NCBI RefSeq assembly: GCF_003334315.1
Contig: NZ_QOWR01000048.1
Length of the DNA stretch: 36,812 nucleotides
Direction: 5' to 3' (one strand)
Source: Escherichia coli
GTDB lineage: Bacteria > Pseudomonadota > Gammaproteobacteria > Enterobacterales > Enterobacteriaceae
Below the pieces are notes generated by a model. It worked only from the letters and a program-made list of their open reading frames with translations, was not told the origin of the DNA and did not search any database. Shown piece by piece: positions 22,861 to 32,766 of the stretch; position 1 is the first letter of the stretch; every line of letters begins with the position of its first letter. Both the position numbers and the translations under genes were made by a program.

Positions 22861-22997
22861 AACATTTTTCCGCTTCGCTACCTCGCCCCTCACTCTTTCC
22901 AATAATGTTGCACAAGATACTGTGACTCTCTTCAAGCCGTCAGCAGGCTGATAATGTTATTTATATTTTATTGTTTATTTCATGCAGCCATTACACG

Positions 22998-24668: not shown

Positions 24669-24894
24669 TGCAATATTCTTTTCAGGTCATGCAAGATCTT
24701 ACGGATAAATAACTCTTTCTGCGCTAACTAAGGAAAATCGCGATCAAAAACAAACTATGACATGCAATATTCCTGGAAACATAAACTTTATGCCATGTAC
24801 CCAGGGAAAATCATCTTCAGTATAGTAATTATGTAAACCGTCGAAGAACAATACGTACGGTAACGAAATTATCTTTCAGCAAGGAGCTGTGAAA

Positions 24895-27827: not shown

Positions 27828-27837
27828 GCAATAATAT

Positions 27838-27865
27838 TTCGGCGGGAATATCCTCCCCCGCCGAA
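27838..27865 (+). terminator. Possible terminator hairpin after aroD
   Basis: 9-bp stem TTCGGCGGG...CCCGCCGAA 11 bp after the aroD stop, but followed by an A-run rather than a T-run, so assignment is tentative. Confidence 0.4.
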
Positions 27866-27971
27866 CTAAAAAAATATATTCAACCGTATTTAATAAAAAT
27901 ATTTCGTGAGTCTCTGTGCGCTAATTATCCATCTGGCGTAGGGAAAATCACACCTGAATCAGGAATTAACA

Positions 27972-30774: not shown

Positions 30775-31686
30775 TTATCCAACAAGACTTACCGGTTGAG
30801 GAAATTCAGATAGGATTTCTTGTTCCGCAAAACAGTTTTTAAATTGCCTGCGGTAATCGCTGGGTGAACAGCCGACATGGCGCAAAAACAGTTTGCCAAA
30901 GTGATCGACATTTTCATAACCCACACGCCAGGAGATCTCTGCCTGTGATAATTCAGTATTAGTGAGTAACCATTTCGCTTCCGTCATACACCGTTGAATA
31001 ACATAGTTAATTGGGGAAATACGATACTCTTTGGTAAATTCATGGCAAATATAACTGACGCTGGCACGAAATTTTTTCGATAACTGTTCTAAAGTGATTT
31101 TTTCGCGATAATTATTATTCAGATAGAAAAGAATATCTTTTATCAGAACATCTTTTTTAATATACCCCTGCTCCGAACGATAAGCATTTTTAAAGTTTTC
31201 GTAGTAAAGAATTGCTAATGTATAGGCAAATGCATCCCATAACGAAGATGTTTGGCTATTTTTACTTTGCGGCAAAATCACACTTAGCTCATTAAATAAG
31301 GTTTTAATGACTTCTTTTCCCTGCCCCGCGGCAATTACCGGACAAGAATGCGGTTGCAGTAGATGATTTTCCTCAGCCCCCTGAAACTGAAAGCCGTACA
31401 GCGCACAGGTACACGTCGTTGCCGGATCGTTAACGTCAGAGGCCACCGCATGCAGCCTGCCGCGTTCTATCACCACTATATCATCTGCATGCGCGACATA
31501 TAACGAAGAATCGATGGTAAACCTTGCCACCCCTTTCTTGACGTAAATCAGCTCGGTTTCATTGTCATGAACGTGATGTCCAGACTCCCATTTTGGATCA
31601 TCGCTAAATGCAAAACGTGAAAGCCGTGGCGTTTTACCAGCGACAAACAGCGTTTCACTGGCATTATCAAAACAGCGTTGATACAT
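30775..31686 (-). CDS. ydiP: YdiP, AraC/XylS-family transcriptional regulator
   Basis: 303 aa with N-terminal cupin-like region and C-terminal AraC-type helix-turn-helix (...QAEISWRVGYENVDHFGKLFLRHVGCSPSDYRRQF). Confidence 0.92.
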   Translation of the reverse strand: MYQRCFDNASETLFVAGKTPRLSRFAFSDDPKWESGHHVHDNETELIYVKKGVARFTIDSSLYVAHADDIVVIERGRLHAVASDVNDPATTCTCALYGFQFQGAEENHLLQPHSCPVIAAGQGKEVIKTLFNELSVILPQSKNSQTSSLWDAFAYTLAILYYENFKNAYRSEQGYIKKDVLIKDILFYLNNNYREKITLEQLSKKFRASVSYICHEFTKEYRISPINYVIQRCMTEAKWLLTNTELSQAEISWRVGYENVDHFGKLFLRHVGCSPSDYRRQFKNCFAEQEILSEFPQPVSLVG

Positions 31687-32001
31687 GACAACCTCCCTAT
31701 TCCATGAGCAAGCAAAAACAATATATGCCGGATAAAATACGGCGTGTATTGCGGTTATACAACCGCGTTTAGCGAGAGCTAAACAAGATTATTTACACTG
31801 AATGCAAGATTGTACGGTCATGGAATAACTATATTGCCGCAAATTGCACTTTTGTTTTAGCGATCGCATTTTTTTTGCAAGATTGTTGGCAAGGAAAACA
31901 GCTTGCTCCGTCGAAAACCCCGCACCGCTATCGCACACTATTTTCAGGCCATTTTTACCTTCCATCGGAGATGGTTCCGTATGCGACTCACAGGAGAAAT
32001 C

Positions 32002-32766
32002 ATGAAAATAATAACCTGCTTTAAGCTGGTGCCTGAAGAACAGGACATTGTTGTCACTCCAGAATACACCCTGAATTTCGACAATGCCGACGCCAAAATC
32101 AGCCAGTTCGATCTCAATGCCATTGAAGCTGCAAGCCAGCTTGCAACAGATGACGATGAGATAGCCGCGCTGACCGTTGGCGGCTCATTGTTGCAGAACT
32201 CGAAAGTGCGCAAAGACGTGCTATCCCGCGGGCCGCACAGCCTGTATATGGTGCAGGATGCACAACTTGAGCATGCACTGCCTCTCGATACCGCAAAAGC
32301 GCTGGCGGCAGCAGTTGAAAAGATCGGCTTCGATTTACTGATCTTTGGTGAAGGTTCCGGCGACCTTTATGCCCAGCAGGTTGGCTTGCTGGTCGGAGAA
32401 ATTCTGCAACTTCCGGTGATTAATGCAGTGAGTGCTATTCAGCGTCAGGGCAATACACTGGTGATTGAACGCACGCTTGAAGATGACGTTGAAGTTATTG
32501 AACTCTCTGTTCCAGCCGTGCTCTGCGTCACCTCCGATATTAACGTGCCACGCATTCCTTCGATGAAAGCCATTCTCGGCGCGGGTAAAAAACCGGTAAA
32601 TCAGTGGCAGGCAAGTGATATTGGCTGGAGCCAGAGCGCACCACTTGCTGAACTGACCGGCATTCGCGTACCGCCGCAAACAGAACGTAAGCACATCATT
32701 CTCGATAACGATTCGCCGGAGGCCATTGCCGAGCTGGCGGAACATCTGAAGAAAGCCCTGAACTGA
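32002..32766 (+). CDS. ydiQ: YdiQ, electron-transfer flavoprotein beta-subunit homologue (EtfB/FixA-like)
   Basis: Start at MKIITCFKLVPEEQDIVV, after CAGGAG, giving 254 aa. The track ORF is an upstream extension. Confidence 0.9.
   Translation: MKIITCFKLVPEEQDIVVTPEYTLNFDNADAKISQFDLNAIEAASQLATDDDEIAALTVGGSLLQNSKVRKDVLSRGPHSLYMVQDAQLEHALPLDTAKALAAAVEKIGFDLLIFGEGSGDLYAQQVGLLVGEILQLPVINAVSAIQRQGNTLVIERTLEDDVEVIELSVPAVLCVTSDINVPRIPSMKAILGAGKKPVNQWQASDIGWSQSAPLAELTGIRVPPQTERKHIILDNDSPEAIAELAEHLKKALN

Follow-up and report, generated by a model that had tools for sequence, protein, structure and literature searches.

Conserved candidate operators for an AraC-type regulator, most likely YdiP, in the ydi gene cluster of Escherichia coli

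Two exact copies of the 11-bp direct repeat TGCAAGATTGT lie in the spacer separating the divergent genes ydiP and ydiQ of Escherichia coli, and both belong to a four-part set of conserved, predicted regulator sites found in at least 11 groups of enteric bacteria. The two copies, here called half-sites B and C1, are probably the high-affinity halves of two operators for a dimeric regulator of the AraC/XylS type, most likely YdiP, which would activate the ydiQRST-fadK operon from one of them. The same four-part layout recurs upstream of ydiN within the 36,812-bp window, i.e. the whole stretch of DNA that was analyzed.

The repeat and its chance expectation

Based on the list of open reading frames and the annotation of the identical E. 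coli O157:H7 region, ydiP occupies positions 30775-31686 on the minus strand and the ATG of ydiQ is found at 32002 on the plus strand. The intervening spacer (31687-32001, 315 bp, 43% G+C) shows 99% identity or more in 5249 of the 5367 E. coli genomes that possess it. Both copies of TGCAAGATTGT are located on the plus strand, at 31803-31813 and 31876-31886, 73 bp apart from start to start, in agreement with the original prediction for the repeat as well as for the extent of the spacer. The window contains no other exact copy, and near matches with up to two mismatches stay at chance level (11 seen, 14.3 expected). Present in the window in just two exact copies, the repeat does not resemble a dispersed element of the REP, ERIC or similar type, and an Rfam search returned no match at E ≤ 1.

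The chance of finding such a repeat had been put at roughly 1%, an estimate that stands for the spacer, where an exact direct repeat of at least 11 bp arises in 1.7% of 5000 dinucleotide-preserving shuffles (P = 0.017), but fails for the window as a whole. Five exact 11-mer repeats with copies less than 300 bp apart were counted there against 1.9 expected, and 84% of block-shuffled windows contain at least one. As such repeats are to be expected somewhere in 36.8 kb, the identity of the copies is weak evidence when taken alone, and repeat statistics were rejected as proof of function. The question was thus settled by comparative data. The same 84% favors reading the repeat as a chance occurrence or functionless remnant, which its restriction to two exact copies in the window and the missing Rfam match speak against. 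Three further exact 11-mer direct repeats with copies less than 300 bp apart, a number near chance expectation, are ATTCTGGCGTT, TCACCGGCGTT and GCAATTGAAGG, found at 1356/1626, 10418/10709 and 26325/26601, respectively.

Conserved half-sites in orthologous ydiP-ydiQ spacers

A scan for YdiP using one genome per species yielded 40 loci, all of which carry ydiQ-ydiR divergently upstream of ydiP and ydiO-ydiF downstream. The clades represented are Escherichia, two groups of Citrobacter, Kosakonia, Serratia/Symbiopectobacterium, Brenneria, Dickeya, Prodigiosinella, Yersinia, a 'Martelella' contig and an Enterobacterales MAG. It should be noted that the contig labeled Martelella alba (L037, NZ_SZPQ01000057.1), an alphaproteobacterial name, contains a complete enterobacterial-type ydi cluster together with its operators, and the label probably results from contamination or a mislabeled assembly.

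Phylogenetic footprinting, the check proposed with the original prediction, was carried out on 38 orthologous ydiP-ydiQ spacers of 315-911 bp from the 11 clades (range over the loci, 314-911 bp). Without any motif seed, TGCAAGAT emerged from these 38 spacers as the most widely shared 8-mer (11 of 11 clades), and TGCAAGA is the only 7-mer of normal complexity that occurs at least twice per spacer in all clades. In the adjacent aroD-ydiF spacer of the same genomes, serving as control, no 8-mer is common to more than three of nine genera. Both copies of the repeat keep their position and orientation in Escherichia, Citrobacter, Kosakonia, Serratia/Symbiopectobacterium, Brenneria, Dickeya, Prodigiosinella, Yersinia and others, within spacers that are otherwise diverged and unequal in length. 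The most divergent MAG (YdiP identity 58%) likewise contains the A-B pair described below and a C1-C2-like block. The view of the repeats as candidate operators of an AraC-type regulator recognizing direct repeats thus holds, both copies being conserved in place and orientation across genera. Full 11-base identity, however, is specific to the E. coli lineage, as the conserved part of TGCAAGATTGT outside this lineage comprises only the eight bases of TGCAAGAT and the last T; copy 1 reads TGCAAGATAGT or TGCAAGATAAT in E. albertii, E. whittamii, Citrobacter, Kosakonia and Yersinia.

Motif-anchored alignments revealed four half-sites, all on the plus strand and pointing towards ydiQ, with A and B forming a first predicted operator (O_P) and C1 and C2 a second (O_Q). 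O_P reads AACAAGATTAT, followed 21 bp on by TGCAAGATTGT. Half-site A (AACAAGATTATTTACAC, 31782-31798), the ydiP-proximal member of O_P, scores 17.5 bits with a PWM built from the A, B and C1 sites of the ydiP-ydiQ spacers, and its core CAAGAT (CAAAAT in the C. freundii group) precedes copy 1 by exactly 21 bp wherever a spacer contains both. Half-site B (TGCAAGATTGTACGGTC, 31803-31819) corresponds to copy 1 with the exact 11-mer and is conserved as TGCAAGATnnTA in 11 clades. Despite the unequal spacers, most genera keep A and B at distances of about 97 and 118 bp, respectively, from the start codon of ydiP. Exceptions are Yersinia, Prodigiosinella, the 'Martelella' contig and MAG L035, where B lies 27-255 bp from the ydiP ATG. 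The pair faces away from ydiP, which does not sit easily with its reading as a YdiP operator. A terminator-like hairpin at 31767-31784, the one found in a scan of the spacer, is not conserved.

O_Q reads TGCAAGATTGTTGG, followed by the degenerate AACAGCTTGCTCCGTCG. Its strong, promoter-distal half consists of a T-tract and C1 (TTTTTT-TGCAAGATTGTTGGCAA, 31870-31892), with C1 proper (31876-31892) corresponding to copy 2 and representing the best PWM match of the window at 24.7 bits. This stretch, TTTTTTGCAAGATwGTTGG, hardly changes from E. coli to Yersinia and Dickeya. The promoter-proximal half, C2 (AACAGCTTGCTCCGTCG, 31897-31913; AACATATTATCATGTCG in Yersinia), follows 20-21 bp after C1 and is a weak match, sharing only CA..T..T..G with it. 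All clades keep a block gAAAACAGaTTGcCCCGTCGAAAA, which becomes TAAAACATATTATCATGTCGTT in Yersinia and Dickeya, at an unchanging distance from C1, and C1 and C2 together make up a 45-bp conserved block in the anchored alignments. Considering the nine genomes with short spacers (alignment A2), all 13 columns of A are invariant, as are 10 of 12 in B, 16 of 20 in C1 and 20 of 27 in C2, compared with one of 35 in the stretch after B. C2 is therefore conserved as well as the strong sites despite its degeneracy. A sigma-54 reading of TGGCA...TTGC within C1-C2 was rejected by eye because of its wrong spacing.

Only A, B and C1 reach at least 13 bits in the 36.8-kb window. The half-sites are about 17 bp long and paired as direct repeats, with a period of 21 bp for A-B in every spacer and 20-21 bp for C1-C2. 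The two copies of the 11-mer had been viewed as half-sites of one operator; instead, each has its own, less similar partner about 21 bp away, so that they appear as the strong half-sites of two separate predicted operators, each with two half-sites.

Promoter-like elements and a second copy of the layout upstream of ydiN

The best candidate for the -10 element of a ydiQ promoter is CACACTATTTT (31934-31944, plus strand), found in all clades at C1+57 to C1+67 as CGCACACTATTT or, in Yersinia, Dickeya and Brenneria, as TATCAATATATC, and preceded by about 20 variable bases after C2. Taking this predicted -10 element as reference, C1 would extend from about -72 to -56 and C2 from about -51 to -35. 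A consensus promoter scan found no sigma-70 promoter with a proper -35 element in the spacer proper, which fits an activator-dependent promoter; its only match is located on the minus strand at 31691-31663, straddling the ydiP start codon. Directly upstream of C1, a CRP-like element is predicted at 31850-31871 (TTTTGTTTTAGCGATCGCATTT), based on comparison by eye with the consensus TGTGA-N6-TCACA. It reads TGTTT-N6-TCGCA in E. coli, and its CGATCnCA block is invariant in genera with short spacers. Genomes with long B-C1 spacers (L023-L032, from Serratia, Yersinia, Dickeya, Brenneria and Citrobacter) contain a better and conserved CRP-like match, TTATGAT-N6-TCACA.

An FNR target named 'ydiP/ydiQ' was reported in a ChIP-chip study, with CTTTCTTGACGTAAATCAACTCGG as the predicted site in K-12 (Grainger et al. 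2007). This site maps inside the ydiP coding region (31533-31556), is unrelated to the repeat and was rejected as its explanation. Its right half-site in the window is ATCAG instead of ATCAA.

A weaker PWM match led to a second set of sites in the ydiM-ydiN spacer (24669-24894), all on the plus strand. A' (TGCAATATTCT...) and B' (TGCAAGATCTTACGG) start at 24669 and 24690, 21 bp apart, and together cover 24669-24706. C1' (TGCAATATTCCTGGAAA) and the C2-like C2' (AACTTTATGCCATGTAC) span 24763-24800, with TGCAATATTCCTGG beginning at 24763, 73 bp past the start of B'. A candidate -10 element of the ydiN promoter, TATAGT (24821-24826, plus strand), is located at C1'+57, and TATAGT, TAAAGT or TACATT is found at this offset in nine of nine aligned genera. 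The A'-B' pair is conserved in ten genera with a spacing of 21 bp (22 bp in Kosakonia) and the C1'/C2' sites in 9-10 genera. Across the ten genera, ydiN spacers contain TGCAAWAT pairs at 21 bp, a downstream block TGCAATAAAnnTGG...AAAC...ATG and a -10-like TAnAnT at a fixed offset.

The sites at ydiN carry T or A where those at ydiQ have an invariant G (TGCAAWAT vs TGCAAGAT), and single ydiN-type sites consequently score poorly with the ydiPQ-trained PWM, which is why a composite score and a relaxed regular expression were used. The composite A/B/C1 score at ydiN is 23.7, compared with -8.2 for the next-best place in the window and a maximum of 6.4 among 200 shuffled windows, none of which reaches it. 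Pairs of [GA]CAANAT separated by 20-22 bp are found twice in the window, once in each of the two spacers, against 0.05 expected, and a 20.9-kb Yersinia locus contains them in the same two places only. Pairwise alignment of the ydiP-ydiQ and ydiM-ydiN spacers of E. coli gives matches at the sites only, indicating a shared regulatory grammar and not a recent duplication. Two related regulators may lie behind the G vs T/A difference between the operator classes. The recurrence of the layout at ydiN, a composite score unreached in shuffles and above all conservation in 11 clades within diverged spacers effectively refute a chance origin, which we regard as extremely improbable.

The ydiM stop codon is followed 1 bp later by the start of A' in E. 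coli, Salmonella, Citrobacter and Kosakonia, none of which carries the LysR-type regulator gene of some other genera. That gene separates ydiM from ydiN, to which it is divergent, in Brenneria, Dickeya, Symbiopectobacterium and Yersinia (2344-3246 in L052, 2300-3202 in L053, 2478-3377 in L058 and 17895-18797 in L060). In Prodigiosinella (L057, 1-2844), Mu-like phage genes (GemA, Mor, DUF3164) are located directly upstream of the ydiN regulatory region, replacing ydiL and ydiM.

At ydiP-ydiQ, B and C1 are 73 bp apart in Escherichia, Kosakonia and the C. amalonaticus group, 250-251 bp apart in the C. freundii group and 327-354 bp apart in the remaining genera, including Serratia, Yersinia, Dickeya and Brenneria. 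The seven-turn spacing emphasized in the original prediction is therefore not conserved across genera, but it does recur at the ydiN operator, where 73 bp is found in E. coli and C. freundii. Other distances, taking both loci together, are 76, 84, 181, 250-251 and 284-376 bp, without a constant helical phase. These distances bear on the proposal that YdiP binds here but mainly represses or loops, A-B and C1 holding a repression loop with 73-bp phasing, and C2 and the presumed -35 overlap being irrelevant. Such a loop would agree with A, B and C1 being strong and C2 weak, and with the 73-bp distance being found twice in E. coli, in unrelated spacers, as well as in other genera. We nevertheless consider it quite improbable, as B and C1 are 181-376 bp apart in many genera with no constant helical phase and the C2 block is conserved like the strong sites. 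The fixed distance of C2 from a conserved -10-like block at both promoters suggests activation.

For an activating YdiP, we hypothesize that dimers would occupy A+B and C1+C2, the half-sites of about 17 bp lying about 21 bp, i.e. two helical turns, apart. Effector-bound YdiP would fill the weak C2 and contact RNA polymerase at the -35 region, in the way AraC acts from I1-I2 and MelR from sites 2 and 2', thereby activating ydiQRST-fadK, and the ydiN promoter would be activated likewise from a position overlapping its -35 region. The CRP-like site just upstream of C1 may add catabolite control. O_P could serve in ydiP autoregulation, in cooperation or looping with O_Q, or in both.

The arrangement is of the textbook AraC/MelR type, as judged from the predicted sites. 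MelR, an AraC family member, controls the divergent melR-melAB region of E. coli through several paired sites of about 18 bp, with the weak site 2' overlapping the -35 element and being filled only in the presence of inducer. A CRP site is located among the activator sites, and a further site near the melR promoter mediates autoregulation. Similarly, ydiP is divergent from its presumed target operon, and paired sites, a weak promoter-proximal site, a CRP-like element and a group of sites near the regulator gene are all predicted. In contrast to MelR, the half-site TGCAAGAT-N4-G is unrelated, all direct repeats point towards the operon, the layout is duplicated at ydiN, and the sites are predicted from sequence.

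AraC dimers bind direct-repeat half-sites 21 bp apart, a strong, distal I1 and a weak, proximal I2 that overlaps the -35 element, together covering about -72 to -35. CRP binds just upstream and the further upstream site araO2 can be used for looping, as summarized in the 'light switch' model. C1 and C2 resemble I1 and I2, being strong and distal or weak and proximal, with a period of 20-21 bp and a location of about -72 to -35 relative to the predicted -10 element, and YdiP shares with AraC an N-terminal cupin and a C-terminal double HTH. Unlike in the AraC system, the upstream element is a full operator with two half-sites (A+B) instead of a single half-site, and its distance varies from 73 to about 350 bp among genera. 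CaiF is a small non-AraC protein that recognizes inverted half-sites in the divergent caiTABCDE-fixABCX region under CRP and anaerobic co-control. The enzyme set regulated by CaiF is paralogous to that of the ydi cluster; the direct repeats next to an AraC-family gene set the ydi system apart.

The binding protein and the ydi cluster

The protein binding the candidate sites is most likely YdiP, judging from gene arrangement and site architecture. YdiP consists of a Cupin_2/AraC_binding domain (residues 28-143) and an HTH_18 domain (residues 202-281), and its sequence matches in the PDB are the DNA-binding domains of AraC and SoxS. The DNA-binding domain is 61% invariant, compared with about 33% for the rest of the protein in the same genera, which agrees with an operator that does not change, without being specific evidence for one. 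In all 40 loci, ydiP is the only regulator gene directly abutting an operator.

Published binding data for YdiP point to cold-shock and highly expressed genes, with no common consensus motif (PMC8464067, PMC9283627). ChIP-exo in glucose M9 medium yielded five weak sites (sdhC, uxaB, secG, cspA and yihQ) and no peak at ydiP-ydiQ or ydiN (PMC8464067), and the five regions (NC_000913.3 coordinates) contain no CAAGAT-type motif above shuffled expectation. ChIP-seq at 15 °C, in a study naming YdiP 'CsiP', placed the protein at tRNA, rRNA and highly expressed genes but at none of the ydi genes (PMC9283627). The YdiP peaks given in Supplementary Data 12 of PMC9283627 are 0.8-22 kb wide and centered on tRNA, rRNA, lpp, ompC, dnaK and similar genes. 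Such a peak pattern is typical of non-specific enrichment, and the cold-shock assignment may not reflect sequence-specific binding. As both studies used aerobic glucose or cold-shock conditions, not anaerobic or inducing ones, the missing ChIP peak is weak evidence. Literature searches covering ydiP, ydiQ, ydiQRST, ydiN/ydiB and the motif itself did not turn up a description of a YdiP operator at these genes, nor a YdiP EMSA or footprint.

The absence of YdiP peaks from both spacers could also mean that the conserved sites are genuine but bound by another protein, be it YdiL, a small Aca2-like HTH protein, the LysR-type regulator encoded beside ydiN or an unlinked regulator. In support of YdiL, its gene at the head of the cluster is syntenic in Salmonella, Citrobacter, Kosakonia, Dickeya, Symbiopectobacterium and Yersinia, and where the LysR-type gene is present, the A'-B' pair falls between it and ydiN. 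That gene is absent, however, from E. coli, Salmonella, Citrobacter and Kosakonia, all of which retain the sites. Direct repeats with a 21-bp period are a hallmark of AraC-type dimers, while Xre/Aca2-type and LysR-type proteins prefer inverted or dyad sites. Given further that YdiP alone abuts an operator in 40 of 40 loci and that its ChIP experiments were carried out in the absence of any candidate inducer, we consider a different binder unlikely. About 85 bp upstream of ydiL, at 22895-22935, AATAATGTTGCACAAGATACTGTGACTCTCTTCAAG is conserved in E. coli, Salmonella, Kosakonia, C. freundii and C. amalonaticus. This block contains a motif-like TTGTGCAAyATTATT on the minus strand as well as an imperfect palindrome, CACA-N6-TGTG, and may represent a further site bound by the regulator in question, or one through which YdiL controls its own gene.

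With YdiP as the regulator, the same four-part layout before ydiN would imply one local regulon consisting of ydiN-ydiB-aroD, ydiP and ydiQRST-fadK. Co-induction of ydiN, ydiB and aroD has been described for a shikimate-accumulating strain (reviewed in PMC4585142), which fits an effector from the shikimate pathway. We take several cai/fix proteins to be paralogues of ydi enzymes, specifically CaiA and YdiO (acyl-CoA dehydrogenase-type reductases), CaiB and YdiF (CoA-transferases), CaiC and FadK (ligases) and FixABCX and YdiQRST (electron-transfer proteins). It is conceivable, though rather unlikely, that a single effector-responsive YdiP regulon joins the quinate/shikimate genes ydiN, ydiB and aroD with ydiF, ydiO, ydiQRST and fadK. 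The cluster would then encode an anaerobic pathway for a hydroaromatic acid, e.g. shikimate or quinate, proceeding via a CoA thioester by analogy with the carnitine cai/fix system, and not a back-up for fatty-acid beta-oxidation.

A G+C-rich hairpin, GGCGGGAATATCCTCCCCCGCC, is located just past aroD in the aroD-ydiF spacer (27828-27971), and no motif was found either in this spacer or in the 150-200 bp or so preceding ydiF in the 40 loci; together, these observations suggest that ydiF-ydiO may be transcribed separately from ydiN-ydiB-aroD. YdiO and YdiF are 88-96% and 86-93% identical to their E. coli counterparts, even in Yersinia and Dickeya (L002-L041), compared with 58-69% for YdiP and 59-76% for YdiQ/YdiR in the same loci. 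The high identity of YdiO and YdiF points either to exceptionally tight constraint or to part of the cluster having been transferred recently. The ydi cluster has been lost in host-restricted Salmonella (PMC3967523).

If the single-pathway reading is true, the targets behind the published role of YdiP as a cold-shock regulator ('CsiP') would not be its primary ones. YdiP is among the remaining uncharacterized transcription factors of E. coli and can now be assigned a specific, testable candidate operator and a probable regulon. The shared sites link shikimate/quinate genes with genes for 'anaerobic fatty-acid oxidation', two groups annotated to unrelated pathways, a connection that may help to reveal which substrate is truly handled by a gene cluster often used in metabolic engineering.
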